Numbered from the stretch's first letter, positions 2,291-32,168 are shown. The stretch is 32,967 nt of DNA from Haematospirillum jordaniae (NZ_CP014526.1); one strand, 5' to 3'. Numbers and translations are program-made. The notes: a model not told the origin generated them from the sequence alone.

Positions 2291-2296
2291 CGCGTC

Positions 2297-4346: not shown

Positions 4347-4828
4347 AGGGCGACCTCCTGCTCGCGCCGGTGGACAAGGCCCCGGCAATTGTTGGCCGGA
4401 TCACGACAATCTTTTTTGCCGACAAAAACCCAGCGCCGCAGATCATGACAACCGCCAGCCCGGTCCCCTTCGTTGATTTTCCGGAAAGCCGTGGACTTGC
4501 GGCAGGCTTCTTGACCAACGTTGAAGCAGAACGAAGCAAGGGCGGCCAGCGCAGATTCAGGCAGCGGGACAGAAATGAATCTTTCGACAGCCTCAAGGCT
4601 TTCAGCCACATCCGCCTGAAGAAGAGATCGGCACGTCTCCGGGGCGGCTGTCTGGCCCGGCGCAACGTCGCGGGTGTGGCCGGAGCAGATAGTCCAGACG
4701 CGGGCGGCATCCTGATACGCGCTCAGGCGTGTCCCCTCATGGCTCGCAATGTACGGCAGGGCGATGGCCATGGCCCCGGCACCACCAGCGACAAGGGCCA
4801 CAACAGCCGCAGGAAGACGGGGAATCAT
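4331..4828 (-). CDS. SAR endolysin, GH24 (T4/P21-type lysozyme) with N-terminal signal-anchor-release domain
   Basis: Likely start is ATG at 4828 (ATGA overlap with the holin stop). N-terminus MIPRLPAAVVALVAGGAGAMAIALPYIASHEGTRL is a Gly/Ala-rich weakly hydrophobic SAR-type helix, followed by the lysozyme catalytic region (E...D/C...T triad context SHEGTRLSAYQDAARVWTICSGHT). Confidence 0.75.
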   Translation of the reverse strand: MIPRLPAAVVALVAGGAGAMAIALPYIASHEGTRLSAYQDAARVWTICSGHTRDVAPGQTAAPETCRSLLQADVAESLEAVERFISVPLPESALAALASFCFNVGQEACRKSTAFRKINEGDRAGGCHDLRRWVFVGKKDCRDPANNCRGLVHRREQEVALCLLS

Positions 4829-5028
4829 GACCGCCCCCGGTGACGGGTCCGAACCAGCGCCCAGTAGCGCGGCACAAGAAGCCCTATCTGAAGGCTGACG
4901 TAAATGAGGGTGCACCATGCTACCAGCTCATTGAGCGAAAACCCCATCCACGACCACATGGCCCCTGCCGCCGCCGGGGCAACACGGAGGGCGGCATCAA
5001 ATTCGTCATGCATCTCACTCAGTCCCAC
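4825..5028 (-). CDS. Holin / pinholin candidate
   Basis: 67-aa protein with one or two hydrophobic helices (AAAGAMWSWMGF...LVAWCTLIYVSLQIGLLV), a charged C-terminus, and translational coupling to the SAR endolysin. It is in the P2 Y position after X. Confidence 0.55.
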   Translation of the reverse strand: MGLSEMHDEFDAALRVAPAAAGAMWSWMGFSLNELVAWCTLIYVSLQIGLLVPRYWALVRTRHRGRS

Positions 5029-5219
5029 AGGCTTATGCGTTTCTTTACAGGGGCGGATACGGGGGGGAGGGTGATGAGCGTTCCGTGCGGCAGGACAAGG
5101 CCAAGATCAGCCAAACCGGGGTTTGCCGCATAAATGCGGGCCGTCATCGCGGTGTCTCCATAGACCCGCAGGGCCAACTGGTCCACGGTCTCGCCGTGCA
5201 AGGATCGAACGGAAGCCAT
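5019..5219 (-). CDS. X: Tail protein X (gpX)
   Basis: 66 aa. The GDTLDxLA-type motif (GETVDQLALRVYGDTAMTARIYAANPGLADLGLVLPHGTLITLP) is typical of the P2 X family; it lies between L and the lysis genes. Confidence 0.65.
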   Translation of the reverse strand: MASVRSLHGETVDQLALRVYGDTAMTARIYAANPGLADLGLVLPHGTLITLPPVSAPVKKRISLWD

Positions 5220-5683
5220 CAGATCAACTCCACAACAATACGAGGCTTACCGCACAGCCTGGCCGTTGCCTCGGCGGCATGGCGAAGGTAGTCACGGGCT
5301 GTAACCTCCAGATCATCCGCACGGCCATGGCCCGACTTTGTGCTGTCAAAGTCACGGGTGGTCAGAAGCAATTCGGCACGGGCGCGGGCGTAAACAGCCC
5401 GCTTGTAGAAAAGGACTTTTTCCGGCACGCCCCCATACGACGTCTGCTCCGGAACCTGATCAAGACATGCTGCTGTCTGCGCAGACCTCCACGCACGAAC
5501 GCCCGCGTTGACCTCCAGAATCGCGGCCTGCACGGCAGCGGCCATCCGATCCGGGCCAAACGTGTCTCCCAGCCCCGTTTGGGACCGGAATTCCGCAAGA
5601 TCGACGTTCGGGAACCAGCCATCATTGGTGATGGTCCGCTCGTAACTCGTGGCCCGAAAACTGGTAGGTACAAGAACAGACAT
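5219..5683 (-). CDS. L: Head completion/stabilisation protein (gpL)
   Basis: 154 aa, directly downstream of M as in P2. Confidence 0.7.
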   Translation of the reverse strand: MSVLVPTSFRATSYERTITNDGWFPNVDLAEFRSQTGLGDTFGPDRMAAAVQAAILEVNAGVRAWRSAQTAACLDQVPEQTSYGGVPEKVLFYKRAVYARARAELLLTTRDFDSTKSGHGRADDLEVTARDYLRHAAEATARLCGKPRIVVELI

Positions 5684-5782
5684 ACGCTTTGATCCATGGT
5701 AGTGGCGGTGACGGCAGAGGACCGTTCAGGGCCTTGGAAGGCTCATCACGTCCCCCGCGCCGTCACCGCGCCGGGGGGCCTG

Positions 5783-6439
5783 CTATGTCCCTTCGTCCGA
5801 TGCAACAGAAAGCCGCCTCAATCGCGCCAGATGGCTCCGTACACCGCACTTCGGATGGAGGGCGAGCGCGGCCTCGAAATGATCCATTGCCTTGACCGGG
5901 TTGCCGTCCATACAGGCAAGGCCAAGCGCCTTGTGTGCCTTTGCCCTCACTTCGTCCGGCATGTCGGCCTCCTGCGTCAGGAGCAAGGCCCGGTCCAGCG
6001 GTGCTGCGTGCAGCGGGTCCGGATCAGGGCGCTCGAGCGCAACATCCGCCATCTGCTCAAGCAGTGTGGTGGGCAGATTCCGGGTGAAACCGGGCGGCAT
6101 GCTCAGATCATGGCGAACAGCGTAATCCGCAATGTGCAAAGCCCCCTCAAGATCACCCGTATCCAGACGCCACAGCATGACCATCGCCAGAACATCGTCC
6201 TGTGCACCGCGCCCGCCTTCAAGGACACCATCGACATAATCCGTATAGGCGGGCAGGAATTCGGCCTTCGCCGCCGTCTTTGCCGTACGTGACTGCTTGG
6301 TTTTCAGAACAGATGTATGCAAACGTAACTGTGCCTGCATTTTTTCAGATGACGACCGGGCCGCCATACGGTCCATGGGGTCGCTGGCATCGTGGCGGGC
6401 CGCCATTGTACGGATGAAATGTTGACGGGCCGGCGACAT
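5783..6439 (-). CDS. M: Terminase small/endonuclease subunit (gpM)
   Basis: Inside the 5783..6493 ORF; the likely start is the internal ATG near 6439 (MSPARQHFIRTMAAR...), abutting the capsid gene stop. P2 order N-M-L. Confidence 0.7.
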   Translation of the reverse strand: MSPARQHFIRTMAARHDASDPMDRMAARSSSEKMQAQLRLHTSVLKTKQSRTAKTAAKAEFLPAYTDYVDGVLEGGRGAQDDVLAMVMLWRLDTGDLEGALHIADYAVRHDLSMPPGFTRNLPTTLLEQMADVALERPDPDPLHAAPLDRALLLTQEADMPDEVRAKAHKALGLACMDGNPVKAMDHFEAALALHPKCGVRSHLARLRRLSVASDEGT

Positions 6440-7467
6440 CACGCCCACCCGTCCTGGCCGTCCGGGAGCAGAATGCCTTCGACCAGTGCACACTTGCCCA
6501 TGTCCTCAACAACATACGCCTCGTTGATCGAGAGATAGTCCACGATACGGTCGCGCTTTGGCTCGTCCTCGATGTGACGACGATGGCTTCCGGCCTGCCA
6601 ATAGATGGAGAGGTTCGAAGGCGAGGTAACCAGAACGGAGCGGGCCGGGAAAAACGGCACCGTCAAGGCCGAGCGCCCGCCGATGGTTTTGTTCAGGATG
6701 GTTGTCTGCCACGCCGCCCGCTCGGTCGGCGCATCGGCGGTCGGGTTATTGATCATGGACAGGTAACGGTCGTTCAACAACTGGTTGCCGACGATGACCA
6801 CGATCGACGGATCGCCCCGATGATGCTCCGCAACAAGCTCGTTGCAGACATCAAAGACCAAGGCATCCAGATTGCGGTAATCGGCGCCCTTGGCCTCGCC
6901 CATCTTTTTTCCGGACATGACACGCGCCGGGGCATCGGTGCGCAGATGCTGAAGCCAGCCGATGTTCACATCTTGCAACAAGGTATTCGTAACCGGGTTT
7001 GTATTTGCGGCTGCTGACGTTCCGTTCCAGCCAATCATGAGCCGGTCACGGGCTATCTGCCGGGTTACGTGATCCCTGATCCGTGCGTGAAAATCCGGAA
7101 ACTTCGCCCAGCTATCCAGAAGGGCATAGGGAACGAAGGTGTCAAAATCCGTCTTCCGGCACGTGTACTCGCGCTTCGTCAAGCCTGTGACCGCGCGGGG
7201 CTGCCTGTCCTTCTCGGCGGTATTGGTACGCCCTGCCACAGGGCCGGAGGCACCAAGGCCCAGAATCTGTCCTGACTGCTCAGTCCGGGAGATCATGTTG
7301 ATGCTCTGGAGGAAATCTGCGCTGTCCTGAATGCGGTCTTCCAGCGTTTGCTCGACGGTCGGGTCGATTGAGAATTTTGTACTGGTACTCTCCACGCCGT
7401 TCAGGCGCGAAAGCTGGTCGGTATAGGTCTGGAACAGGGCACGGGTCTTGTTATGCATGATCAGCAA
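6439..7467 (-). CDS. N: Major capsid protein (gpN, P2 family)
   Basis: 342-aa ORF at the P2 N-family size, downstream of scaffold gene O. Confidence 0.9.
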   Translation of the reverse strand: MLIMHNKTRALFQTYTDQLSRLNGVESTSTKFSIDPTVEQTLEDRIQDSADFLQSINMISRTEQSGQILGLGASGPVAGRTNTAEKDRQPRAVTGLTKREYTCRKTDFDTFVPYALLDSWAKFPDFHARIRDHVTRQIARDRLMIGWNGTSAAANTNPVTNTLLQDVNIGWLQHLRTDAPARVMSGKKMGEAKGADYRNLDALVFDVCNELVAEHHRGDPSIVVIVGNQLLNDRYLSMINNPTADAPTERAAWQTTILNKTIGGRSALTVPFFPARSVLVTSPSNLSIYWQAGSHRRHIEDEPKRDRIVDYLSINEAYVVEDMGKCALVEGILLPDGQDGWA

Positions 7468-8255
7468 TCCGTCAGGGCTATGCTTCCGGTTGCAACCGGG
7501 CGCGGTGGGTTTGCATCGGTGGATGAAAGCTTTGTAACCAGGTCATCAAGGGCGCGCCGGGTCTCGGCAAGCTCGGTAGTCAAGGCATCGACCTTGACGG
7601 CAGGAGCACAGGCCCCGATACGCTCCGATAGCCTTGACACCTCGTCGGCAATGACAAGAATTCCGTCTGCTGCTTCGGATGTGTGGACCGTCTCTGCCTT
7701 GGGTGGGCCTGCCAGCATATCCCGGACGCGCGACAGGAGACCCGGCCTGCTGTCATCATCGGCGGCAATGGTATCAAGCCGGAAGTCATCCTCAACGACC
7801 GCGCCATACAACTGCACGCGGGTCTTGTCCGGTGCCTTGTCCGACTGGATAGCAAATTTGAGCATTTCGGTGCCAAGCGAAGCCGGGCTGTCTGTAATAG
7901 CCAGACCAACCAGATATGCCTCGCCGCTCTTGGCAAAATTGGGATCAATCTCGACAGACCAGTAAACCTTCTGGCGGGATGCCGCCATTTTGATCAGATC
8001 CTCGGTTGCATCCATTTGCGCCAGCAAGACGCGGTTTCCGGCCTTGTCCGTGTCGGCTTTGACCGCAAGCACGTCGCCATAGGCCCGCCCCGGATTGTCG
8101 GGCAGAAAGGACCGCATATGCTCCAGCCAGATCCGCGCCCCATAGCGGTTGGGATCATAGGTTCGGGCGACCTGATCTATCTGGTCGACGGTTATTTCGC
8201 GACCATCGACGGTCCGCCCGGACGTGGCGACGCGAAAAAATTTGGTGACAGGCAT
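7461..8255 (-). CDS. O: Capsid scaffolding protein (gpO)
   Basis: 264-aa ORF, divergent from terminase gene P as in P2. Confidence 0.85.
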   Translation of the reverse strand: MPVTKFFRVATSGRTVDGREITVDQIDQVARTYDPNRYGARIWLEHMRSFLPDNPGRAYGDVLAVKADTDKAGNRVLLAQMDATEDLIKMAASRQKVYWSVEIDPNFAKSGEAYLVGLAITDSPASLGTEMLKFAIQSDKAPDKTRVQLYGAVVEDDFRLDTIAADDDSRPGLLSRVRDMLAGPPKAETVHTSEAADGILVIADEVSRLSERIGACAPAVKVDALTTELAETRRALDDLVTKLSSTDANPPRPVATGSIALTDC

Positions 8256-11118: not shown

Positions 11119-11179
11119 CCGAGTATTGCAGGAAGCTCCTTTATCGGTTTTTTCCGCAATACTCTCTTTGCGTGCTGCC

Positions 11180-11650
11180 TCAGCGCATGGTGAGGCGGCG
11201 GGGCTTCTGAGGCCGGGGCGCGCCCTCTTCAGCGATTGTGTAGTCTTGAGATGCTGCGGGAATTCCCATTTCGCGCCGGGCCAGATCAGCAAGAAAGGCC
11301 GATCGTGTAAGGCCTCGCTCCTTGGCGGCCTGGTCCGTGGCGTCCAGTAATCCGGCATCCATGGTGATATTGGCGCGCACCGTGCGCCCGGTCAGATGGA
11401 TAAACGGCACGGCCAGCAGAAAAGCTCCATTTTTTAAATCTGCCTGAACATCCCGCAGCCGTCGCACGACCTCAAGGGAGCGGGCACGCGGTATGCGCTC
11501 TCCCTCCAGGTGTAGGGCCACAGCCTCGGCGGCATTGGGAAGAAGCTCATCCAGCGTGTCGGCGGCTGAGAAACATCCGGGGACATCCGGAAAGTGTATC
11601 CCGTAGGCACTGTTTTCATCTTGGTGAACAACACCGATGTAATAACGCAT
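11180..11650 (-). CDS. hicB: HicB-family antitoxin (RNase-H-like N-domain plus C-terminal RHH)
   Basis: MRYYIGVVHQDENSAYGIHFPDVPGCFSAADTLDELLPNAAEAVALHLEG is a typical HicB N-domain. C-terminal NITMDAGLLDATDQAAKERGLTRSAFLADLARRE is RHH-like. Sits downstream of hicA. Confidence 0.75.
   Translation of the reverse strand: MRYYIGVVHQDENSAYGIHFPDVPGCFSAADTLDELLPNAAEAVALHLEGERIPRARSLEVVRRLRDVQADLKNGAFLLAVPFIHLTGRTVRANITMDAGLLDATDQAAKERGLTRSAFLADLARREMGIPAASQDYTIAEEGAPRPQKPRRLTMR
11185..11225. other. Candidate cos site (cohesive-end region)
   Basis: About 70 bp past the Q stop sits GGTGAGGCGGCGGGGCTTCTGAGGCCGGGGCGCGCC, resembling the P2 19-nt cohesive end as recalled (GGCGAGGCGGGGAAAGCAC). P2 cos lies about 80 bp from the end of Q. 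A 9-bp-arm inverted repeat GAGTATTGC...GCAATACTC lies just before it (about 11121..11163). Confidence 0.3.
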
Positions 11651-11665
11651 GAACGTCTCTCCTGC

Positions 11666-11893
11666 CTAAAGTAAACCGGCCTGCCGATAAATCTGACGCA
11701 CTGTACCAATCGGAAGGTCCTTTTTGGGATGCGGTACTGTGACAGTCCGGTCCTCGCATTTGAACTTGTGATGGGATCCGGTAGTTCCGACCAGTTCAAA
11801 GCCATGGGCCTCCAGAAGCTTGATCAGTTTTCGGCTGTTTGTCTCAAACACGGTGCCGCTTTGCCTCCCCTTACGCCCAAGGATTATACGCAT
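11666..11893 (-). CDS. hicA: HicA-family mRNA-interferase toxin
   Basis: C-terminus KLIKLLEAHGFELVGTTGSHHKFKCEDRTVTVPHPKKDLPIGTVRQIYRQAGLL is the HicA signature. Start chosen at the ATG near 11893; alternatives are 11923 or an internal start. Confidence 0.65.
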   Translation of the reverse strand: MRIILGRKGRQSGTVFETNSRKLIKLLEAHGFELVGTTGSHHKFKCEDRTVTVPHPKKDLPIGTVRQIYRQAGLL

Positions 11894-11923
11894 TATGATA
11901 CACACGGTCAAGCTTTGGCGCAT

Positions 11924-11939
11924 TATAATACGTATTATA
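11924..11939. promoter_or_regulatory. Palindromic operator/promoter of hicAB (TATAATACGTATTATA)
   Basis: Perfect 16-bp palindrome overlapping TATAAT boxes immediately upstream of hicA. The related direct repeat CGCATTATGATAC is about 30 bp away. Confidence 0.4.
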
Positions 11940-12065
11940 TTCGGGAGAGTGCCCGGCGCAGCCTCACATAGAGGCAGCGATGACGGGACAGCAAAGCAAG
12001 GCAGATACCGCATGCATCCAGCGTGTCAGTAAGGATGGGACGGACACAGCCGCGCCCGCAATAAA

Positions 12066-12100
12066 GACCATTTTCGCAGCGTCACGAAAATGGTGGTGAG
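12066..12100 (-). terminator. Hairpin downstream of the mazEF-like operon
   Basis: ACCATTTTCG-N8-CGAAAATGGT, a 10-bp-arm inverted repeat just after the toxin stop. The T-tract is weak. Confidence 0.3.
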
Positions 12101-12107
12101 ATCTTGC

Positions 12108-12431
12108 TCACCCGAACCCGAGGAACAGCGCCAAAGCCCTATTCACGCTGACCATGGTTTTATCATCCAGCCTGCCAAAAGCCTCGCCCACCTTGTCACG
12201 ACGCACGGTCATAACCTTGTCGACCATGATCTGTGAGGGCTTGCGCAGCCCGTTGTCAGTATCCGGAACAATATCCATGCGGATCAGCGGTGCATCAACC
12301 AATGTGCCTGTCATCAGCAGAACCGAGACGGTTGCCGTCTCAATAAACTGATCGGATTGGATCACCAAGGCCGGGCGCGGCTTCCCGAAGTCGCCCGGCA
12401 AGGAGATAGTCACAAGATCACCGCGCCTCAA
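12108..12431 (-). CDS. PemK/MazF-family endoribonuclease toxin
   Basis: MRRGDLVTISLPGDFGKPRPALVIQSDQF... is a classic MazF/Kid N-terminus. 107 aa. Confidence 0.8.
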   Translation of the reverse strand: MRRGDLVTISLPGDFGKPRPALVIQSDQFIETATVSVLLMTGTLVDAPLIRMDIVPDTDNGLRKPSQIMVDKVMTVRRDKVGEAFGRLDDKTMVSVNRALALFLGFG

Positions 12432-12652
12432 GGTTGCGCCTCATCGTCCAGATCGAGAAGAGCCGCGTCCATAAAGTCATACAAACCAGCGTCTGCCCTG
12501 TCCGCGCGAGCCACAACATGGGCTTGGCGCTGGCATTCCTCTCTGAAACCCGGTTGGCGGGTATCAGGAATCCATATCTGGACTGGCCGGAGTCCCGCAG
12601 CCCTCAGAGCAGCCCGGCGCTTGTTTACCCGCCCAGAGACTGGCGTTGGCAT
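12428..12652 (-). CDS. Cognate antitoxin (MazE/PemI-like, small DNA-binding)
   Basis: 74 aa with a 4-nt overlap with the toxin; acidic C-terminus; RAALRAAGLRPVQIWIPD motif. Confidence 0.55.
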   Translation of the reverse strand: MPTPVSGRVNKRRAALRAAGLRPVQIWIPDTRQPGFREECQRQAHVVARADRADAGLYDFMDAALLDLDDEAQP

Positions 12653-12678
12653 GGGGGCCTCCTGTATATAAGCCTACG

Positions 12679-12692
12679 CGTTACATGTAACG
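12679..12692. promoter_or_regulatory. Operator palindrome CGTTACATGTAACG upstream of the mazEF-like operon
   Basis: Perfect 14-bp palindrome next to TATATA, about 30 bp upstream of the antitoxin start. Confidence 0.4.
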
Positions 12693-12751
12693 TAACCGAT
12701 GGTGGGTGGAGGTGTCAAGACCAGTCTCTTTCCGCGCTTTTTTTAGACCTA

Positions 12752-12835
12752 TCCAGCGAAGACAGCTCACAGCCTTATGCAACTAAATTCAGTTGCATTT
12801 AAAGGATCCTTTCCCTATACTGGGGGCACAAGCTA
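12752..12835. repeat. Direct repeat copy A (about 80 bp), containing the hicAB-2 promoter/operator
   Basis: GCGAAGACAGC..CAGCCTTATGCAACT(A/G)AATT(C/T)AGTTGCAT.TAAAGGATC.TTTCCCTATACT recurs at 13600..13680. It contains the inverted repeat TGCAACTNAATTNAGTTGCA and a TATACT -10-like box, followed by a Shine-Dalgarno and hicA-2. Confidence 0.6.
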
Positions 12836-12849
12836 GGAATTAAGGTGGC

Positions 12850-13104
12850 ATGAACAGGCGTAGCAAGCTGGTGGACCGTTTCCGGGCCTGCCCCAAGGAC
12901 TTCACATGGAAAGAACTGGTGAAGGTTCTGGAAGGCTTTGGGTACACAGAGGTCACCGGCGGCAAGACAGGTGGTTCGCGTCGTCGTTTTATCCATCCCG
13001 ATGCCGCCTCCCTTTCCTTGCACAAGCCGCATCCAGGGACCATCCTGAAGCTGTATGCGCTCGAAGCTGTTTTACAGCATCTGAAAGACGAGGGCCTTCT
13101 ATGA
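12850..13104 (+). CDS. hicA: HicA-family toxin (second copy, long form)
   Basis: FTWKELVKVLEGFGYTEVTGGKTGGSRRRFIHPD...LHKPHPGTILKLYALEAVLQHL is the HicA/YcfA fold signature. Confidence 0.7.
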   Translation: MNRRSKLVDRFRACPKDFTWKELVKVLEGFGYTEVTGGKTGGSRRRFIHPDAASLSLHKPHPGTILKLYALEAVLQHLKDEGLL

Positions 13105-13529
13105 AGACAATGATGGAGTACAAAGGGTATTACGGAAGCGCTGAGTTCAGTCCTGACGACGAGGTTTTTCACGGAAAGCTCGAATTCATCCGCGATCTGG
13201 TCACCTATGAATCAGACGACGCCAAAGGTCTGAAGCGGGCCTTCCATGAAGCCGTTGATGATTACTTGGCGCTTTGCCATGAAAATGGACGCAAGCCGCA
13301 AGTCCCCATGAAAGGCTCCTTCAACGTCCGGGTCGGGCGCGACCTGCATCGCCGCGCCATGCTGAGCGCTCATCGACATGGCGTGGGACTGAACGACACC
13401 GTAACAGAGGCCCTGCGCCGCTACCTGGACGAAGTGGACGAACTGTTACCGGAGCATCTGCGCCATGGCATGCCGGAAGCTCAGGAACACAATGACAAAC
13501 CTGGGCGGCGTCCGCTCGCCTCACGGTAA
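13101..13529 (+). CDS. hicB: HicB-family antitoxin (second copy)
   Basis: ATG at 13101 overlaps the hicA stop (ATGA). N-domain MKTMMEYKGYYGSAEFSPDDEVFHGKLEFIRD... and C-terminal RHH (SFNVRVGRDLHRRAMLSAHRHGVGLNDTVTEALRRYL). Confidence 0.7.
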   Translation: MKTMMEYKGYYGSAEFSPDDEVFHGKLEFIRDLVTYESDDAKGLKRAFHEAVDDYLALCHENGRKPQVPMKGSFNVRVGRDLHRRAMLSAHRHGVGLNDTVTEALRRYLDEVDELLPEHLRHGMPEAQEHNDKPGRRPLASR

Positions 13530-13550
13530 AAGCTGGTAACGGCAGCATCC

Positions 13551-13612
13551 GTGCCGTTTTCCGCCGCTATAGCGGCGCTCCAGAGCGCCTTCCTGAACGA
13601 GGCCGCGAAGAC
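13551..13612 (+). pseudogene. Orphan fragment of a portal (Q-like) gene
   Basis: Encodes ...AAIAALQSAFLNEAA, matching gpQ residues ...YTAALQSAFLNEAA (10640..10680) at about 75% nucleotide identity. It is fused directly to repeat copy B, and no full portal ORF is present there. Confidence 0.5.
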
Positions 13613-13680
13613 AGCCCGCAGCCTTATGCAACTGAATTTAGTTGCATATAAAGGATCTTTTCCCTATACTAATGGCACGG
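13600..13680. repeat. Direct repeat copy B (partner of 12752..12835)
   Basis: Same ~80-bp unit with the TGCAACTGAATTTAGTTGCA inverted repeat. No gene follows on the plus strand. Confidence 0.6.
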
Positions 13681-13932
13681 CAGGAAAAGCAGAAAAAAAC
13701 GAAGTCTCCCCCCGCCACGCTTGCGGCTTAAATATGCCTCACATTCTGCAGTGCAGAGAGTGCCTCTACGCCAGCAGTTGCCTTGCTTTCCACGCACCAT
13801 GGAGACCTGTCAAATCTCTGCATTTTTCTGCTGTTATTCTGCAGTACGCCGCACGGTGATTAACAGGCCGCCAAGGCAATAGCCTATCAACATTACCATA
13901 TCCCCATATTTGTAAATTTACGCATTGCCATA

Positions 13933-14178
13933 TCAGGCGATTGGCGGATAATCATACTTCTTGAACAAATCATTCAGCGCCTCGGTTACAAGCTCCTTTA
14001 TCGAGTTCCGCCGCATCTCAAGTCGCATTTTGTCAACTTGGTAATGCGCCTCTGCCGGTATCTCGACGATCAATTTCTTTGTCGGTCGCTCAATTGGCGT
14101 AAGCCCCGGGTCAATGGTGACAGGCGTTTTAGGCGTGAGTTTATTATGCAATGCAGCGTGCAGGCTTGGCTTTGCCAT
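13933..14178 (-). CDS. parG: ParG-like RHH partition protein (centromere-binding)
   Basis: From the internal start: MAKPSLHAALHNKLTPKTPVTIDPGLTPIERPTKKLIVEIPAEAHYQVDKMRLEMRRNSIKELVTEALNDLFKKY. This is a small basic protein with an RHH fold, immediately downstream of parA. The start is uncertain (overlaps parA by about 35 nt). Confidence 0.5.
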   Translation of the reverse strand: MAKPSLHAALHNKLTPKTPVTIDPGLTPIERPTKKLIVEIPAEAHYQVDKMRLEMRRNSIKELVTEALNDLFKKYDYPPIA

Positions 14179-14803
14179 GTGTCTTGCTCTCCATCTGGTT
14201 AATAATAAAACGGTATAATGCTGCGATTTCTTCGGCGGCTTTACTGTCTGATCCAAGCTCCTGAACGCCCTTGCCCATTGTGAAGGCATGAACAAAGGCC
14301 ATGCGATTGCCAATGGTGACGGGGGCAAGCGCAACGCCGTACCCTCTGATCGCCTCGGCGGCCTCCTCCGTAAGACTCCCGCGCGGTGGAGTTTGGGTCA
14401 GAACGGAAACAGCGGGCTTGCCTGCAAGCTGGGCTATTTTCACACTCGAACTGATTGCGCGTAGATCAACAAGCGACGGCTTGCACGGGATCAAGATCAG
14501 GTCAGCAAAGGCAGCGGCATCCAGAGCATCTTTTTGTGAGTGCGGAGCCGTATCAAAAATGACAAAGGCTGCTCCACTCTGGCGGGCAGTTTCGATGTAA
14601 TGCGGAATGCGGGCGGCATGAAGGGAAATGACTGCGGGTGACTCATCGTCTCGGCTGTCCTTCCACCCCATAGACGATGCCTGCGGATCAAGATCGAAGA
14701 TTGCGGCCGCCCTACCATCACGTTCAGCAGCGATTGCAAGATTAATGGCAAGGGTCGTTTTACCGGCCCCTCCTTTTTGCGATATGACAGCTATTGTCCT
14801 CAT
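14144..14803 (-). CDS. parA: ParA/ParF-type partition ATPase (small type Ib)
   Basis: Deviant Walker A box KGGAGKTT near the N-terminus (MRTIAVISQKGGAGKTTLAINLA). About 219 aa. Confidence 0.8.
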   Translation of the reverse strand: MRTIAVISQKGGAGKTTLAINLAIAAERDGRAAAIFDLDPQASSMGWKDSRDDESPAVISLHAARIPHYIETARQSGAAFVIFDTAPHSQKDALDAAAFADLILIPCKPSLVDLRAISSSVKIAQLAGKPAVSVLTQTPPRGSLTEEAAEAIRGYGVALAPVTIGNRMAFVHAFTMGKGVQELGSDSKAAEEIAALYRFIINQMESKTHGKAKPARCIA

Positions 14804-14804
14804 A

Positions 14805-15060
14805 CCATATCCCCATATTGCCACATTTAATGTTTTTTACATGGCCATATTTACTGATTGTCATACTGCCATAATTATCCAAATTTACAACCCCTTATCA
14901 GGGTACACCTTCGTCGTCGTAAAAAACGTTGTAAGCGTCTTTGCATTCGTCAGAGCATAGCTCCTGCACGTCCACCGATACTATATAGGTATACTTATGG
15001 GGGATTATTTCAGCCGTATCGCGATGCTAAGGCTTTAATCATTAATTGGTGTATACGTAT
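14805..15060. repeat. AT-rich repeat array upstream of parA (candidate centromere/par operator)
   Basis: Multiple (T/G)GCCATA(T/A) and CCATAT motifs (ccatatccccatattgccacat..ggccatatttactgattgtcatactgccataatt). The 16-mer ACCATATCCCCATATT recurs downstream of parG at about 13889. Confidence 0.35.
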
Positions 15061-15353
15061 TTATTTATGATAAAAAGAATACCTTGAACTATAAAATACA
15101 ACATATGATTTTTGAAGTTAGATTCATCCATGAAAAAGATGACTCAATAAACTAAGTCAGATTAATAGCATTAATGGGGTTGTCAGAAAAAAGCCTCTGT
15201 GCTGACATGTAGACCACATTCAACTTCACCTGTATCGATATCAGCGTCATTCACAAGCACAGCTAGAAAAAGCTGATCCGTTTTAATGTTTAGGAACAAT
15301 GGAAAACCAAGCATCACTTGCGTGGGACAACATCAGTACGAGAGAAAATTATA

Positions 15354-15743
15354 ATGTCGAAGAAACGTGTTTTTGTAAGTTTTGACTACGACAATGACAA
15401 TGAATTAAAGGAATTGCTCGTTGGGCAAGCAAAAAATCCCGACACGCCGTTCGAACTCGCAGACTGGTCTATAAAAGAACACCTGACAGGGGATTGGAAA
15501 GATAAAGCAAAAAAAAGAATTCGGTCTGTAGACCAAGTAATTGTTCTCTGCGGCGAGAGCACACACAAGGCAAATGGCGTTGCCGATGAACTTAGAATAA
15601 CTCAAGAAGAGGGAAAAGATTATTTCTTGTTGAAAGGTTATAAGGATAAAGAATGTACAAAACCGACATCAGCTCTTAAAACAGATAAAATGTATACATG
15701 GAATTGGGACAATCTCAAGGCGTTAATAAATGGGAACCGCTAG
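15354..15743 (+). CDS. TIR-like domain protein (DUF1863/ThsB-like)
   Basis: MSKKRVFVSFDYDNDNELKELLVGQAKNP... and VDQVIVLCGESTHKANGVADELRITQEEGKDYFLL match the DUF1863 TIR-like hallmark (RVFISF-DYD start; vivLiGe-T---WV--Ei motif with the catalytic-position Glu). The gene and its surroundings are markedly AT-rich compared with the rest of the window. Confidence 0.7.
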   Translation: MSKKRVFVSFDYDNDNELKELLVGQAKNPDTPFELADWSIKEHLTGDWKDKAKKRIRSVDQVIVLCGESTHKANGVADELRITQEEGKDYFLLKGYKDKECTKPTSALKTDKMYTWNWDNLKALINGNR

Positions 15744-15748
15744 ATCCC

Positions 15749-16249
15749 ATGATTGGCGTCTGGAACAGAGAAAGCAAGGATTGCATCGAACGCGAAAAAG
15801 AGATCGCAACAGAGCAATACAAACTTTATGTTGAGATGGCTGATAAGATCAGCGATCGGCGCGTACATGCAAACAAATTTTATGTTGCCCTCAATTCTAG
15901 CCTAATAGCTTTTTACGGCTTCGCTACAGCCAAGAACTCCATCGTCCAAAATGATTCTTGGCTGTATCTAGTGCTTATAGCCGGAATTCTTATTTGTTTT
16001 TTGTGGATCGAAACCGTCAAATCATACAAGAATATTAATACAGTCAAATTCAAGGTGATACATGAAATAGAGGAACACCTTCCTCTTGCACTATATAAAT
16101 ACGAGTGGGAGCTTGCCAAGCAAGGCGATGGATCAAAATACCGCCCTACATCGCATATTGAAATGATTGTTCCATGGGTATTTGGATTTCTTTACGTAAT
16201 AATTGTATCATGCAAATGCTACTCTTATTTTTTTGAACTTTATCATTAA
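15749..16249 (+). CDS. Small membrane protein with 2-3 TM helices, SLATT-like; candidate effector partner of the TIR protein
   Basis: Starts 5 nt after the TIR stop (same operon). Hydrophobic helices FYVALNSSLIAFYGFATA, WLYLVLIAGILICFLWIETV and IVPWVFGFLYVIIVSC, with a charged N-terminal helix and a helical segment between TM2 and TM3. The size (~166 aa) and topology fit SLATT-type 2TM effector domains that associate with TIR/SMODS/SLOG genes. Same low-GC composition as the TIR gene. Confidence 0.45.
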   Translation: MIGVWNRESKDCIEREKEIATEQYKLYVEMADKISDRRVHANKFYVALNSSLIAFYGFATAKNSIVQNDSWLYLVLIAGILICFLWIETVKSYKNINTVKFKVIHEIEEHLPLALYKYEWELAKQGDGSKYRPTSHIEMIVPWVFGFLYVIIVSCKCYSYFFELYH

Positions 16250-16254
16250 ATGTC

Positions 16255-16300
16255 CTTGATCGGGGGCGATGTTTGCCGGACCCCGATCAAGCGATTTATT
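16255..16300 (+). terminator. Rho-independent terminator after the TIR/TM operon
   Basis: CTTGATCGGGG-N-CCCCGATCAAG stem followed by a TTTATTTTT run. Confidence 0.5.
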
Positions 16301-16455
16301 TTTCTTAAAGCACCTACGCATAAACGGCCATTTACAAGCCGGTCCGGTTTCGAGACACCGGGCACGGCAACAGGCGGCGTCCACGCTCTCAAAAACCACG
16401 CTTGAAACCATGTCGGTTCTTGGTGATGTTTACGATGCGTTTTGAGGGAGATGTC

Positions 16456-17010
16456 ATGCTGATCGGCTACGCCCGCGTTTCGACGCGAGACCAGACCACA
16501 GAGCTACAGACAGAGGCGTTGTCGGCAGCCGGTTGCGAGCGCGTGTTCGAGGACCAGACCAGCGGCAGCCGTGAAGACCGTCCCGGCCTTTCCAGTGCGC
16601 TGGATTACCTGCGCACTGGTGACACACTGGTGGTGTGGAAGCTGGACCGTCTGGGCCGGACCGTGAAGCAGCTTGTGCATCTGGTTGACAGCCTTCAGGC
16701 CCGTGGCATCCACTTCCGCAGCCTCACCGACGGCATAGATACCGGAAGCCCGGCAGGCCGGTTCTTCTTCCACATCATGGCCAGCCTTGCCGAGATGGAG
16801 CGCGACCTGATCGCCGAAAGAACACGCGCCGGACTGGACGCCGCCCGGAAAGCCGGACGCAAAGGAGGGCGCCCCGCAAAGATGACCCCCGGCAAGATCA
16901 CGGCAGCCCGCAAGCTTCTGGAAACCGGAACACCCGCCCGCACCGTCGCCGAGAGTCTCGGCGTGTCACCCGCTACACTGTACCGCTGGCTGCCTGCCCA
17001 GACGGCTTAG
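16456..17010 (+). CDS. Small serine recombinase (resolvase/invertase family)
   Basis: MLIGYARVSTRDQTTELQ...GDTLVVWKLDRLGR is the catalytic Ser motif and resolvase N-domain, with a C-terminal HTH (VAESLGVSPATLYRWL). Likely start at 16456 with Shine-Dalgarno GAGGGAG. 184 aa. Confidence 0.85.
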   Translation: MLIGYARVSTRDQTTELQTEALSAAGCERVFEDQTSGSREDRPGLSSALDYLRTGDTLVVWKLDRLGRTVKQLVHLVDSLQARGIHFRSLTDGIDTGSPAGRFFFHIMASLAEMERDLIAERTRAGLDAARKAGRKGGRPAKMTPGKITAARKLLETGTPARTVAESLGVSPATLYRWLPAQTA

Positions 17011-17016
17011 CGTGCT

Positions 17017-17550
17017 TTATTTTCCGTTTTCTGAGACGCCGCTTTTATCAGCTATAGCTTCGCGCAAGAGAGCGTTAAGTCGGTCCTGCCATCCATCGCC
17101 CTCAGAGTGAAGATACTCAAGGATATCAGGATCGAGACGAACGGGTGCTGTTCTTGTTACACGCGCCAAGGGAGAACAGCCGCTCCGTACGGGGATTTTT
17201 TCAAGCGCTTCTGCCCATTCAGGGATATCTGTGTCCTGTTCTTGTTTTTCTACAGACATTTTCTGAATGGCCAGTCTCAAACCCATGGTGCGCAAAATCG
17301 CCATCAAGCTGCGAATCTCCGGGTTTCCTTTGTGCGACAGGGTACGATACAACTGGTTCGGGTTCAGCGCTGCCGCCTTTGCCACCTGACGCACCCCCCC
17401 GAATGCTGCGGCCATCTGGCGCAGAGCTATCAGCAGTTCCCCTTGATCACCATCTTCCAGAATGCTGTTCAGCAATGCCTCGGCATAAGCAGGATCATTA
17501 CGAAACACTTCTGCCATAGCTGTATCATGTTCCCGGTCTTTCATTGTCAA
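17017..17550 (-). CDS. HTH antitoxin (addiction-module antidote family) with a C-terminal BrnA-like extension
   Basis: The N-terminal ~100 aa (FRNDPAYAEALLNSILEDGDQGELLIALRQMAAAFGGVRQVAKAAALNPNQLYRTLSHKGNPEIRSLMAILRTMGLRL) match the antidote partner of RelE/ParE-type killers. The C-terminal ~70 aa (VRLDPDILEYLHSEGDGWQDRLNALLREAI) resemble the BrnA motif. Immediately downstream of the toxin. Confidence 0.55.
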   Translation of the reverse strand: MTMKDREHDTAMAEVFRNDPAYAEALLNSILEDGDQGELLIALRQMAAAFGGVRQVAKAAALNPNQLYRTLSHKGNPEIRSLMAILRTMGLRLAIQKMSVEKQEQDTDIPEWAEALEKIPVRSGCSPLARVTRTAPVRLDPDILEYLHSEGDGWQDRLNALLREAIADKSGVSENGK

Positions 17551-17556
17551 ACCTCT

Positions 17557-17874
17557 TTAACGTTTCTGCCAGTCTTGCCAGTACGAACAAGCGCGCTCAA
17601 TGTCGGCCTTCTGCCTTCGCTTGTCCCCACCGCAGAGCAGAAGGACAATTTCCTTGCCTGCTCTTGCAAAGTAAACGCGATAGCCTGGACCAACGTCGAT
17701 GCGCAGCTCATACACACCATCACGCAATGGTTTATGATCACCAAAATTACCGAGTTCCATGCGGTAAATACGACGATCAATGGCAACCAGGGCCTTGGTG
17801 TCCCGTATTTGCTCACGCCATTCGGCAAAGTGGTCCCGGCCATTTGAATCGAGATAGTGTCGTATCGTCTGCAT
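17557..17874 (-). CDS. RelE/ParE-superfamily toxin (addiction-module killer)
   Basis: 105 aa, upstream of the HTH antitoxin with a 6-nt gap. Sequence features are typical of the killer-protein family (MQTIRHYLDSNGRDHFAEWREQI...GVYELRIDVGPGYRVYFARAGKEIVLLLCGGDKRRQ). Confidence 0.7.
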   Translation of the reverse strand: MQTIRHYLDSNGRDHFAEWREQIRDTKALVAIDRRIYRMELGNFGDHKPLRDGVYELRIDVGPGYRVYFARAGKEIVLLLCGGDKRRQKADIERACSYWQDWQKR

Positions 17875-17885
17875 GACGGGGATTA

Positions 17886-17899
17886 TCGTTTATAAACGA
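17886..17899. promoter_or_regulatory. Operator palindrome TCGTTTATAAACGA upstream of the relE/antitoxin operon
   Basis: Perfect 14-bp palindrome about 12 bp upstream of the toxin start codon. Confidence 0.4.
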
Positions 17900-18204
17900 C
17901 ATTGTGTCAAGCGTTATTCTTTTGAGCCGATGGGAGTGACAGCCTGCATATTGCTTACCAAGCCATACCGCTCCTCCAGATGGTGCAAACAAAAAACTCA
18001 ACCATCCGTCCCTTGTTCGATCCGCGCCGGAGGCGAGGGCGAACATGCCCGTAAGGGCGTGGACGTCCCTCGTCCCGACGCCTTCAGAAGACCAGCGCGC
18101 GCAACGGAGTGCAACAGGCCGAAGGCGCACCGCAGCCACGCGCAGCACGTAGTGCGAGCATGGCGAGAAGCCACCTGTTGCACGGAGAGAGCACGTTGGT
18201 ATTA

Positions 18205-18262
18205 GGCTCCCTCCCCGATGACGGGGAGGGGTGTGCGCGACCCTAGCGCACGCCTTTTTATA
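18205..18262 (+). terminator. Tandem hairpins with a T-run (plus-strand terminator)
   Basis: CCCTCCCCGATGACGGGGAGGG hairpin followed by GTGCGCGACCCTAGCGCAC + GCCTTTTTAT. Confidence 0.4.
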
Positions 18263-18400
18263 TTTATTTGTTTGTTTAAAGGTTCTCTCATCAGTTTCTG
18301 AACCCTAGAAAGTCCGGAAAAGGGGGTTCTGGTCCGTAAAATCCGGATTCTTGTTTGTGTTTCTGTGGATAACTTTATTTTGGGCTTCAAAAACGACAGC
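18255..18400. other. AT-rich origin-like region (candidate oriV / DNA-unwinding element) 3' of the repA-like gene
   Basis: tttatatttatttgtttgtttaaagg...ttattttgggcttcaaaaacgac is a strongly AT-rich island inside an otherwise ~60% GC replicon. Short TCCGGA-containing repeats. Only spurious small ORFs. Confidence 0.3.
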
Positions 18401-18452
18401 AAAACAGGGGGAGAAGGTGCCGGAAAAGGCCCGGATTTGCTGTCCGCACAAA

Positions 18453-18482
18453 CGGCTACGCCCGCTCAAGGGCGGGTTTTAG
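18453..18482 (+). terminator. Rho-independent terminator (GCCCGCTCAAGGGCGGG + TTTT)
   Basis: Perfect 7-bp stem with T-run, 20 bp from the 3' end of the convergent repA-like gene. Confidence 0.45.
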
Positions 18483-18504
18483 AGGGACAGATTGTAACTG
18501 GCTG

Positions 18505-19191
18505 CTAGTCGGGCGGCTTGCGCTTGCGGGCCTCTTTCTGGTCCAGAATACGCCGATCCAGATCAGCCTGCTTCTGTTCATGGGCATCCCCGTAGCGTTC
18601 GAGAAGCGCAAGGCCCTCACGGACCTCACCCACCTCCCGCGCGGCCTTGTACATTTCACGCGCACTCGGCCACTCGAAGGGGTAGCGGTCAAAGACCTTT
18701 GACTCATCCATCTTCAGTTGCCACCGCGCCGGAGACAGAAAGGCGTATGCGTTGGATACTTGCTTCAGGAGGAACCGACCGTTATCAAAGGTCCGTTTGA
18801 TGCAGCGGTTGACCGCGAAGATAATGCCCTGTTCCCGAAGGAATTTCAGCGCCTTGTAGACCGTTGTCTGACCGTAGCCCGCCTTCTCTCCAAGGGTCTT
18901 GTAAGAGCATGTCAGTTCGCCGGTCTCCCAATTGATCATCTCGACAAAAGCCCGATAGACAGCGAGCACCGAGCGGCCTCGTCCTTCATAACGCTGCACC
19001 TCTGGGCTTGCTGCGAGTTGCTCCTTCCAGCGCAAAACCGTCTTTCTCGGCGGCGGCTTGCCGAACTTGACAAGATGCTTCTCGAACGCGCCGCGACGGC
19101 ACTGCCACTTCGGACCGTCCGGCAAGCCGAACGGGGGCGTGAGCCGGAAGCCCGGTGAAACTGTGTCTGGAGGGGAACCTGAAAGAAACAA
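18505..19191 (-). CDS. Replication initiator-like winged-HTH protein (plasmid RepA/RPA-like)
   Basis: Core RSVLAVYRAFVEMINWETGELTCSYKTLGEKAGYGQTTVYKALKFLREQGIIFAVNRCIK is the wHTH typical of alphaproteobacterial RepA-type initiators. Last gene of the early operon, where P2/186 carry replication genes. The true start is uncertain. Confidence 0.45.
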   Translation of the reverse strand: MFLSGSPPDTVSPGFRLTPPFGLPDGPKWQCRRGAFEKHLVKFGKPPPRKTVLRWKEQLAASPEVQRYEGRGRSVLAVYRAFVEMINWETGELTCSYKTLGEKAGYGQTTVYKALKFLREQGIIFAVNRCIKRTFDNGRFLLKQVSNAYAFLSPARWQLKMDESKVFDRYPFEWPSAREMYKAAREVGEVREGLALLERYGDAHEQKQADLDRRILDQKEARKRKPPD

Positions 19192-19300
19192 AGACCGCGC
19201 CCTACCTTGGGGCCGGGAGAGCTTTTTTTGCTGGAGTCTCGAGAGTGATTGACTTGGCTGAAGCCGCGCCCTATCTTGGGCTTTGCGGTAACGCCTGCAT
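19192..19300. repeat. Direct repeats upstream of the repA-like gene (iteron/operator candidates)
   Basis: CGCGCCCTACCTTGGGG (about 19196) and CGCGCCCTATCTTGGGC (about 19266), 70 bp apart. Confidence 0.3.
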
Positions 19301-20422: not shown

Positions 20423-20680
20423 TCACAGGAATGGAAACTGCATTTGATTCGGCGAAACACCGACAGCGAACGGAACGCCGACCCGCCGCCGACCCGGCAA
20501 CGAACTTTCGTTGAGAGAGCGAACCGGCGTCAGCGCGGCCACAAACATTGCGGCGCAATCCTCGCTGGTGCACAGATACGTAATCTCGCGGTACACGTCG
20601 GTAACCTGTCGGGTCTTGACCGTCCGACACCGGACGCCGCAATACGGACACTGCGTCGAATTGCTCGGACCTGCGCTCAT
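20423..20680 (-). CDS. ogr: Ogr/Delta-family zinc-finger late-gene transcription activator
   Basis: MSAGPSNSTQCPYCGVRCRTVKTRQVTDVYREITYLCTSEDCAAMFVAAL carries the C-x2-C-x22-C-x4-C pattern and the RTxxTRxVTD...FVAxL signature of P2 Ogr / 186 B. Confidence 0.75.
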   Translation of the reverse strand: MSAGPSNSTQCPYCGVRCRTVKTRQVTDVYREITYLCTSEDCAAMFVAALTPVRSLNESSLPGRRRVGVPFAVGVSPNQMQFPFL

Positions 20681-25575: not shown

Positions 25576-25630
25576 CCGCTAGACCTTCTCACAGGCAGAA
25601 ATATCGGTTGTAAATCCGCCGCTCCCATCG
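25576..25630. repeat. 55-bp direct repeat copy 2 (native 3' end of gene D)
   Basis: See 24768..24822. Confidence 0.6.
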
Positions 25631-26559
25631 ATTGTGTGCGTAACATCGTCGGCGATCCAGTTCATGCGGCAGATCTCCGGGGACCAGCCGACAAGGTTCA
25701 GCGGCATTCCGGCGCACAGGTCGGGCTTGCCGAGCGCCAGCGACAGAGTCAATTCATTGGCGCCGCGCTGGCGCTGCTTCCACGCTGCAGCCGCTGCGTC
25801 CTCCGCATCCTTGCGGCTGGTGTATATCTTTTTAAGGGTCTTGACCGATCCCCCCTCGCGACCCGCTATAACCGTCTCGGTAGATCCTGTTGACAGGTTA
25901 TGCCACTTGGCTGCGATGCCTGTTGTTGATCCCTCGCGATCAGACGTGCGGAAGCTGTGGCGGTCGCTGTCCCGACGGTTGATGGTTAGAGACGGCATTG
26001 CCGCCCCAGAGGCCGTAACACCGGACGCGGCTGGCAGGAACAGCAAGCGACCGGCCTTGATCGTTGACAGCGCGTCATGATCTTCACCCAGACGGCTGAT
26101 GAAGTTGAGGTCGCTTTCGTTGGTCTGGTCGATGTGATCGATTGCAATTGCCGCCAGATCCGGGTGAATGGCGGAGGCCAATCCATGGCGCTCGGCAATG
26201 GATCCAAGAACTGAACCAATGTTTGTCGCCTCGTAACTGGCCTCGCGCTGGTCCTTCAGCGCCCCCTGAAAATCAGCCGATCGCGCCGTAATCCGGATGA
26301 CATCCGGCGGTCCCTCGTGTCCGATTTCATCAACAACAAACTGGCCCTTGTCGACGAGGGCCTCCCCCTTCCAACCTATCGCCAGCGACAACCTGACGCC
26401 GCGTGCGGGCAGGGCAATCGATCCATCATCAAACACACTCAGTTCAAGCTGGTCTGCCTCCATGCCGGATTTGTCCAAAAGTCGAAGCGCGAGAAGGCGA
26501 TGCGCAAAGGCTGTTGTGATGTCCCGGTCTTCCGCAAGGATACGCCAGTCCGGTATCAT
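25579..26559 (-). CDS. D: Tail protein / late control protein gpD
   Basis: 326-aa ORF following U. P2 D-family features, and it is the terminal gene of the tail operon. Confidence 0.8.
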   Translation of the reverse strand: MIPDWRILAEDRDITTAFAHRLLALRLLDKSGMEADQLELSVFDDGSIALPARGVRLSLAIGWKGEALVDKGQFVVDEIGHEGPPDVIRITARSADFQGALKDQREASYEATNIGSVLGSIAERHGLASAIHPDLAAIAIDHIDQTNESDLNFISRLGEDHDALSTIKAGRLLFLPAASGVTASGAAMPSLTINRRDSDRHSFRTSDREGSTTGIAAKWHNLSTGSTETVIAGREGGSVKTLKKIYTSRKDAEDAAAAAWKQRQRGANELTLSLALGKPDLCAGMPLNLVGWSPEICRMNWIADDVTHTIDGSGGFTTDISACEKV

Positions 26560-26972: not shown

Positions 26973-26975
26973 AAC

Positions 26976-32160: not shown

Positions 32161-32168
32161 GACGGGCC

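Follow-up and report, generated by a model that had tools for sequence, protein, structure and literature searches.

How does a phage that carries the virion genes of P2, and in which no integrase can be recognised, persist in its host as a prophage? The question is raised by a stretch of 32,967 nucleotides from Haematospirillum jordaniae (NZ_CP014526.1), called here the window, which is the whole of a plasmid record of strain H5569 and forms a closed circle of 32,967 bp. A first-pass annotation, centred on positions 11119-19300, had proposed a P2-type phage-plasmid. The computational analysis reported here supports that proposal: the window combines a P2-type virion set with a probable plasmid-type replication initiator and a ParA partition ATPase, has no recognisable integrase and closes on itself. 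We consider it probable that we are dealing with a temperate myovirus of the P2 type which, as a prophage, exists as a circular plasmid of low copy number. The plasmid backbone occupies the position of the A-to-Q accessory hotspot of P2.

The circle and its P2-type genes

The two ends of the record meet inside a gene. A gpH-like tail-fibre open reading frame (ORF; 398 aa, minus strand) runs from about position 394 to 1 and then from 32967 to 32169, with no stop codon at the junction, so that the circle assumed in the first-pass annotation is borne out. An integrase flanking the element outside the window is also discounted, as the sequence closes through this intact gene and nothing lies outside. 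In the original annotation, the replication initiator gene (rep) described below is "AY555_10105 (plasmid)", on the 32,967-bp record.

The extrachromosomal state is not peculiar to H5569. In the draft genomes of two other strains the element is found as a contig of near unit length, 33,227 bp in one and 32,696 bp in the other. The longer one has at least one end inside a 297-bp tandem array, at which draft assemblies break (the last 2 kb of this contig are not among the retrieved parts); judged from the length, its other end should also be in the array. The shorter one reads through an array-sized gap, and its retrieved end lies in the tail-fibre gene. No chromosomal gene is called on the retrieved parts of either contig. 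Break points that differ, together with the lack of chromosomal genes on the retrieved parts, make the pattern expected of a free circle. An identical terminase or tape-measure protein is present on no contig longer than 50 kb. The element is near-identical among the H. jordaniae isolates where it was found, with one exception discussed later.

The full P2-type virion, packaging and lysis set, along with Ogr, was recognised by Pfam and by tblastn with P2 proteins. The P2-type modules and the regulatory genes are as follows.

1..8255, minus strand: 5′ part of H, then I, J, W, V, S, R, lysis genes, X, L, M, N and O (Pfam and tblastn)
8399-11118, plus strand: terminase P and portal Q (Pfam and tblastn)
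20423..20680, minus strand: Ogr/Delta late-gene activator (Pfam Ogr_Delta, 33.5 bits, cut-off 26.3)
22109-22363, minus strand: cox/cro-like helix-turn-helix (HTH) protein of 84 aa (PHROG regulator match)
22470-23522, plus strand: double-HTH repressor of 350 aa, facing the cox/cro-like gene (PHROG repressor match)
25579..32967, minus strand: tail module D, U, T, E, FII, FI, G and the 3′ part of H, which continues at 1-394 (Pfam and tblastn)

The recognised genes are Q, P, O, N, M, L, X, lysozyme, R, S, V, W, J, I, H, FI, FII, E, T, U, D and ogr; the match of the tail-fibre-assembly gene G is weak. By tblastn, 20 P2 structural proteins were found at 25-59% identity (FI 59%, P 53%, Q 47%, N 41%), and the match of Ogr was weak in that search. 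The Q-P and O-N-M-L operons are divergent, as in Peduoviridae.

The non-structural genes of P2 are another matter. When P2 Int, A, B, C, Cox, Old and Tin were compared with the window by tblastn, nothing better than E = 0.3 was obtained, and Int gave only E = 2.2. None of the 47 candidate ORFs over the gene-dense circle matched a tyrosine or large serine recombinase in Pfam. The integrase-free circle postulated earlier thus holds, on the strength of scans at the ORF level and the lack of free coding space. The position of the immunity switch is held by HTH regulators unrelated to P2 C and Cox. In P2 the reference order is D-ogr-attP-int-C-cox-B-A-tin-old-cos-Q. Here, the interval between D and the repressor holds a ParE/RelE-XRE pair, a hydrophobic ORF of 55 aa accompanied by an XRE protein of 75 aa, and a 170-aa protein. 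The leftward operon contains the 297-bp array (three units), a CII-like ORF, ogr and three ORFs of no recognised function, and rep is its last gene.

Replication and partition functions

If the element is maintained as a plasmid, it should encode the means to replicate and to segregate. The features concerned are listed below.

13894..13933: downstream CCATAT cluster with three hexamers, candidate centromere or operator site
13933..14178, minus strand: candidate ribbon-helix-helix (RHH) centromere-binding protein of 81 aa, ParG-like in layout; the gene overlaps the parA stop
14144..14803, minus strand: ParA, a partition ATPase of 219 aa with its ATG at 14803 (NCBIfam NF041546, Pfam CbiA/AAA_31)
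14803..14875: upstream CCATAT cluster abutting the parA start, candidate centromere plus operator
18255..18395: AT-rich patch of 33-45% GC downstream of rep, candidate oriV
18505-19191, minus strand: rep, candidate replication initiator, a single winged-helix protein of 228 aa from an HTH_36-related family
19193..19282: two direct copies, each 17 nt, of CCGCGCCCTAYCTTGGG (at 19195 and 19264), upstream of rep

The Rep protein was characterised mainly through its family. HMMER searches over 1.84 billion representatives yielded 163 relatives, mostly of 220-250 aa, and 44 of the 61 aligned members match HTH_36 (PF13730), the best at 6.6e-12. A profile of the family matches Zmob_1855 at 1.3e-31 (positions 16-233 of 241). 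In all, four proteins are matched at about 1e-31 and nearly over the full length: an ORF of pZMOB05, two proteins of pZMOB04 (one of them Zmob_1855) and a 576-aa protein of the Zymomonas mobilis plasmid pZM36. The match in pZMOB05 (4,023 bp) is its sole large ORF. Deletion of Zmob_1855 (annotated "pfam13730") blocks establishment of a pZMOB04-based shuttle vector, and the pZMOB05 region functions as a replicon (PMC10832546, Behrendt et al.). Homologues are present on 64 native Zymomonas plasmids (tblastn), and among 50,697 phage records they occur only in Zymomonas plasmid records that are filed there (pZM36 and two relatives). With its family on plasmids and one member required for plasmid replication, rep does not look like the usual replication gene of P2-like phages. 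A k-mer homologue search returned Haematospirillum proteins only. The AF2 model improves from a pLDDT (predicted local distance difference test) score of 52 with the single sequence to 86.6 with the 61-sequence alignment.

The gene neighbourhoods are in keeping with these matches. Two metagenomic relatives of rep have a ParA gene paired with a small-protein gene 1-2 kb away, on contigs that bear type IV secretion system (T4SS) genes, and a third adjoins a MobA/MobL relaxase. As the family profile matches a plasmid Rep that is experimentally required, and as rep and ParA travel together, we regard rep-par as a plasmid backbone module. The 228-aa protein is likely a plasmid-type replication initiator, and the poorly annotated winged-helix family of about 225 aa to which it belongs is thereby assigned a likely function. 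We point out that the first-pass annotation had called the protein a RepA-like winged-helix initiator. The winged helix and the kinship with plasmid Reps are upheld, but not membership of the classical RepA/Rep_3 initiators: Rep has no match to these two-winged-helix iteron proteins (pPS10 RepA, F RepE, R6K pi) among Pfam/NCBIfam models or solved structures.

A candidate origin lies next to rep. The patch at 18255-18395 is the most AT-rich non-coding DNA near the gene and contains the window's only perfect DnaA box, TTATCCACA (18364-18372, minus strand), as well as short GTCCGGAAAAGG-type repeats. The origin had previously been sought in an AT-rich island at 14.8-16.4 kb, which we reject: the island is mostly coding, being filled for the most part by two genes, a TIR gene and an 8xMP gene, and 18255-18395 is the better candidate. 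The direct repeats said to lie near the initiator, on the other hand, are there, as the two CCGCGCCCTAYCTTGGG copies immediately 5′ of rep; they are candidate Rep binding or operator sites.

A decayed sister of the backbone is found on the 303-kb plasmid of the same strain (NZ_CP014527.1, 1-8694 and 283117-303116). Its order is a recombinase remnant, a toxin-antitoxin (TA) pair, a stretch of 263 bp, IS607/TnpB and a rep homologue. The 263-bp stretch is 97.7% identical to 17969-18230, and the rep homologue is 88% identical as protein and 87% as DNA. The part missing at the IS607 insertion is exactly 18231-18474 (244 bp). Its loss fits, without proving, that this was an origin no longer needed once the replicon could rely on a RepA of its own. 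NZ_CP014527.1, the megaplasmid, also holds RelBE, a fragment of a tail-tube gene, ParA with an RHH protein, and a large serine recombinase of 569 aa. One gene block occurs in two places of the record, around 3.6-9 kb and again around 282-288 kb, with two IS607 copies nearly back to back across the record start; the doubling is either a real duplication or an assembly artefact.

The partition locus is anchored by ParA. The Walker A motif KGGAGKTT noted earlier is present, and the protein scores above the equivalog cut-off of NF041546 (ParA_partition, 181.6 bits vs. 180). It is a small Walker-type ATPase without an N-terminal HTH, and the closest relatives found are the ParAs beside the rep homologues on the T4SS-bearing contigs (38% and 35%). 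Of the ParG-like RHH partner proposed for it, the small downstream protein stands, whereas the RHH call stays below threshold and no match to the ParG family was found in Pfam. The protein has a long basic N-terminus, with the weak RHH match at the C-terminal end only, and matches PHROG 15913 at 5e-8. A small protein also follows ParA in pZM36 and on two plasmid-like contigs, with the same pattern by eye.

The repeat arrays reported on both sides of the par pair were recovered in the form of a 27-nt direct repeat and the CCATAT clusters. The 27-nt repeat, which itself includes CCATAT hexamers, occurs at 13894-13920 and 14803-14829, the two ends of the parA operon. Six of the ten plus-strand CCATAT copies of the window are inside the two operon flanks of about 100 bp each, where about 0.1 would be expected. 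The centromere and operator of type Ib loci usually adjoin the start of parA. We view the locus as a candidate type Ib, ParF/ParG-like system, with the CCATAT clusters as its candidate sites.

Recombinase, toxin-antitoxin pairs and cargo

The remaining genes between Q and the early operon, and one cassette elsewhere, are given here.

11180-11650 and 11666-11893, minus strand: hicB and hicA of the first HicB/HicA pair (Pfam HicB_lk_antitox 1.9e-27, HicA_toxin 5e-22)
12108..12652, minus strand: mazE-like/mazF (PemK) pair (Pfam PemK_toxin 5e-20, MazE-like 4e-28)
12850-13104 and 13101-13529, plus strand: hicA2 and hicB2 (Pfam HicA_toxin 2e-11, HicB 4e-14)
15351-15743, plus strand: ThsB-type TIR protein (Pfam ThsB_TIR 3e-8, 34.4 bits, cut-off 21.2; PADLOC ThsB 2e-5)
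15698-16249, plus strand: 8xMP membrane protein, the gene overlapping the TIR gene (Pfam 8xMP 1.4e-41)
16435..17010, plus strand: small serine recombinase of 191 aa (Resolvase 2e-48, 164.5 bits; HTH_7 38.8 bits)
17006..17038, minus strand: remnant of a presumed Tn21-type terminal inverted repeat, overlapping the recombinase stop codon
17557-17874 and 17017-17544, minus strand: RelE/ParE-family toxin and its antidote, of the HI1419/HI1420 type
25207-25455 and 24768-25190, minus strand: ParE/RelE toxin and XRE antitoxin, the fifth pair (Pfam HTH_31; ParE_toxin in the precomputed annotation)

The small serine resolvase of the earlier description is present as a gene of the resolvase/invertase type, with both Pfam matches above cut-off, and is proposed here to be a multimer resolvase. 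Inverted repeats of 34 nt (16385-16418 and 17894-17927, 76% complementary) bracket the recombinase and the RelE-antidote genes; one arm overlaps a strong promoter-like site of the toxin operon (TTGACA-17-GATAAT). The layout recalls hin-type invertible segments.

At 17006-17038 the minus strand matches exactly a supplied 33-nt pattern (0 matches expected by chance), which we take to be a Tn21-type terminal inverted repeat. A 42-bp stretch at this site matches thousands of plasmids. From the 3′ half of a recombinase gene through the repeat, about 75% DNA identity is found in some 250 plasmid records, mostly enterobacterial or Pseudomonas among the matches listed. The window has neither a second inverted repeat of this type nor a transposase.

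Five TA cassettes had been counted in 11119-19300. Four are inside it, all intact and with matches above curated cut-offs, while the fifth is outside, at 24768-25455. The hicA2-hicB2 pair is bracketed by 74-nt direct repeats (12756-12829 and 13605-13678, 88% identical), each containing a perfect 23-nt palindrome, and the second repeat is followed by about 250 bp without a recognisable gene. These repeats may have arisen by duplication of an operator or may mark the place of a cassette since lost. In the HI1419/HI1420-type pair the toxin is above the cut-off of NCBIfam TIGR02683 (4e-38); the antidote is below that of TIGR02684 (2e-12, 47.1 bits vs. 53.7) and matches Pfam dnstrm_HI1420 (47.9 bits, cut-off 27) and BrnA_antitoxin.

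The fifth pair looks like a cassette insertion with target duplication. A 52-bp direct repeat (24764-24815 and 25575-25626, 50 of 52 positions identical) brackets it and duplicates the last 16 codons of D, so that the XRE antitoxin ends in the C-terminal peptide of D (GSGGFTTDISACEK). Next to it, at 24380-24771 on the plus strand, the strongly hydrophobic 55-aa ORF overlaps the gene of the 75-aa XRE/MqsA-like HTH protein by 4 bp. The two could be a sixth TA pair, of the membrane-peptide type.

The block at 14.8-16.4 kb has 38-43% GC, and the TIR and 8xMP genes in it are accessory cargo, probably anti-phage. No ThsA partner (SIR2 or Macro), as in Thoeris, was found for the TIR protein, and the 8xMP partner has no match in PADLOC; the two may be an undescribed defence pair of a TIR protein plus a membrane effector. 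P2-like prophages have their main hotspot for accessory and defence genes between gpA and gpQ (PMC13586616), and this would be why TA pairs and a TIR cassette accumulated at 11-19 kb.

Persistence, rival readings and known relatives

How might such an element be maintained? The HTH_36-related initiator probably binds the repeats beside its own gene and, together with host DnaA, would open the AT-rich patch at about 18.25-18.40 kb for theta replication. The type Ib-like ParA and the downstream candidate RHH protein would segregate the copies through the CCATAT clusters on the two sides of the operon. Resolution of multimers would fall to the small serine recombinase, and a cell that lost the element would be killed or arrested by the five TA pairs. 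Since rep is the most distant gene of the early operon that runs leftward, replication may also increase for lytic growth once the cox-like/repressor switch is derepressed.

A more specific version can be entertained, which we hold to be doubtful. The HTH_36-family initiator would have entirely displaced the rolling-circle machinery of gpA/gpB in an alphaproteobacterial lineage (the window and pZM36), serving lytic amplification as well as stable maintenance at low copy number. The change from one mode to the other would be made by transcription, through read-through from the cox-like early promoter over the 297-bp array into ogr and rep. If true, this would be a design of replication control not described for P2-like phages.

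The array itself (21147-22042; 297 bp × 3.0, 92% identity) lies between the cox-like gene and the CII-like and ogr genes. Every unit has a terminator-like hairpin on the transcribed minus strand, CCGCCCCGCAAGGCGG, followed by a T-run. The array may be a transcriptional gate or consist of repeats that serve replication. Two other interpretations were discarded. Folding of the unit is no better than that of shuffled sequences on either strand (z = -1.6 and -1.8), which speaks against a structured RNA, and Rfam has no family match anywhere in the window. The 396-aa ORF at 21102-22292 is a tandem-repeat artefact: it has no Pfam match and all six frames are open over the array, yielding spurious ORFs of 316 and 396 aa.

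Several points weigh against a functional phage-plasmid. Taken alone, Rep is below threshold for HTH_36 (E = 0.002, 18.3 bits vs. a cut-off of 25), and so it is for two PHROG families of "replication initiation protein" (about 1e-3). The RHH call of the 81-aa protein is weak (Antitox_RHH, 22.8 bits vs. 27.2). About 0.25 perfect DnaA boxes would be expected by chance in 33 kb, so that finding one is no rarity, and the origin, centromere and resolution site are all assigned from sequence features. The cos site, which the first-pass annotation had placed next to Q, was not located in the window, where neither the cos sequence of P2 nor the Q-distal region of the plasmid-forming phage KS14 has a match. 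Nor was a lytic replication gene (gpA or primase) recognised by Pfam, PHROG or tblastn. Finally, a contig in which IS607 joins the element to other DNA, described below, indicates that the element or a sister element can end up inside another replicon.

The last two negatives are also what a domesticated or defective phage-derived plasmid would show, one that makes no infectious virions and is kept by its plasmid and TA functions. Five addiction modules could hold a dead element in place, and the related pZM36 is known only as a plasmid. We nevertheless judge this reading unlikely. The essential P2 morphogenesis, packaging and lysis genes that were found are all full length and near-identical across the compared strains, the repressor/cox-like switch and ogr are intact, and the occurrence of a heteroimmune variant of the switch in another strain suggests ongoing selection as a phage. 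The par and res genes are not remnants either, given that ParA passes the equivalog model and all the maintenance ORFs are intact.

The heteroimmune variant is on the 46,310-bp contig JAAVTC010000011.1 (GCA_012102795.1), the exception to near-identity mentioned above. Its tail genes are 99.6% identical to those of the window, but the repressor and cox-like proteins only 65-70% at the amino acid level. After about 1.7 units of the 297-bp repeat come IS607 and then megaplasmid-like DNA. The contig represents a cointegrate or else a variant of the element that is larger. In joining the element to other DNA it lends something to the idea that the record is an excised or replicating circle of a normally integrating prophage (by the small serine recombinase or a host system) that was deposited as a plasmid, and so does the 569-aa large serine recombinase that the sister backbone adjoins on the megaplasmid. 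Small serine recombinases do serve integration in a few phages. This reading is nonetheless very improbable: neither a tyrosine nor a large serine integrase was found in the window ORFs, plasmid-type Rep and ParA are both present and intact, and the retrieved parts of three assemblies show a free circle only, with the identical terminase on no large contig. Furthermore, the homologous recombinase of KS14 is invertase-like and KS14 is shown to be a plasmid.

That 11-19 kb is the usual A-to-Q hotspot with TA and defence cargo, on which rep and par are incidental passengers, is scarcely credible: the stretch does hold TA pairs and a TIR cassette, as that defence hotspot would, but with integrase and gpA both lacking, nothing else is seen by which the element could persist, the order rep-parA-RHH-portal is kept in pZM36 at only 30-46% protein identity, and Rep and ParA travel together on unrelated plasmids.

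The phage-plasmid reading can now be set beside known systems, by which the novelty suggested at first pass proves overrated: P2-like plasmid prophages are already known, namely KS14, pZM36 and pArsFIN13. The element joins this small set and is apparently uncatalogued. Its record is absent from the phage and plasmid collections searched, where no match went beyond a few per cent of the query, and a search seeded with the portal protein returned only five distant loci, from Iodobacter or metagenome-assembled genomes. No publication on it was found in a literature search keyed on the guessed accession CP014526. The findings should be useful for the cataloguing of phage-plasmids and the annotation of HTH_36-related initiators, and will be no surprise to the specialist. 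Conservation at near-identity, five addiction modules and a TIR cassette also make the element relevant to genome plasticity in H. jordaniae, a blood-borne, emerging pathogen, as well as to curing and vector design.

With P2 itself (AF063097) the window shares the content and order of the morphogenesis, packaging, lysis and late-control genes. It differs in that P2 has Int at attP between ogr and C, and gpA, a rolling-circle nickase that acts with gpB, none of which has a homologue here.

KS14 (HM461982, 32,317 bp; Burkholderia; Peduoviridae) likewise has an initiator and a ParA plus small protein between Q and the early genes. The two serine recombinases (gp6 in KS14) share 50% identity, and the structural proteins up to 63%. 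In contrast, the KS14 initiator gp37 has no match to the HTH_36-related family profile, its ParA is only 28% identical to that of the window, and nothing comparable to its 923-aa CHC2 zinc-finger protein was recognised in the window. The CHC2 protein is presumably of the primase type and may serve phage replication. KS14 was shown in 2010 to be a virion-forming P2-like phage whose lysogens yield it as a plasmid; it has no tyrosine integrase but carries ParA and a 225-aa serine recombinase judged to be invertase-like (PMC3091744).

The closest parallel in organisation is pZM36 (CP023680/CP023718, 36,494 bp), which was measured at about one copy per cell (PMC5930841). Its P2-type structural set is 25-46% identical to that of the window and its order is the same: ogr, the HTH_36-family rep homologue, accessory genes, ParA, a small (Arc-)RHH protein and the portal. 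It also has TA pairs, and neither an integrase nor gpA is annotated. It differs from the window in the Rep (576 aa, with long extra N- and C-terminal parts, vs. 228 aa), in having no annotated serine recombinase, in its cargo (Abi, DinD) and in its host, which belongs to Sphingomonadales rather than Rhodospirillales. It has been described as a phage-gene-rich plasmid and not analysed as a phage-plasmid. Between D and the regulatory region (14758-17983), pZM36 has seven arrays of about 87-90 bp × 3, plus one of 33 bp × 8.5; repeat-rich early regions may be a common trait of alphaproteobacterial P2-like plasmids.

The Zymomonas PF13730 Reps Zmob_1855 and the pZMOB05 ORF share with the window Rep the winged-helix core and flanking conserved motifs. 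They are longer (374-501 aa), and their origin sequences are unrelated to the window's; the iterons of pZMOB05 are 24 bp × 3.8.

The third relative, pArsFIN13 of Arsenophonus nasoniae (about 33.6 kb), is also a circular record with a complete P2-type set, RepA and ParA, no annotated integrase, and a terminase 52% identical to that of the window. Unlike the window, it keeps gpA (the replication endonuclease) and Cox, and its RepA-ParA lies between Cox/early genes and ogr, roughly the int-C place of P2, rather than beside Q. Thus, in the window, KS14 and pZM36 the A-to-Q accessory hotspot is the site of the backbone, and the four elements together show that virion modules of the P2 type have combined on several occasions with plasmid backbones of different kinds.

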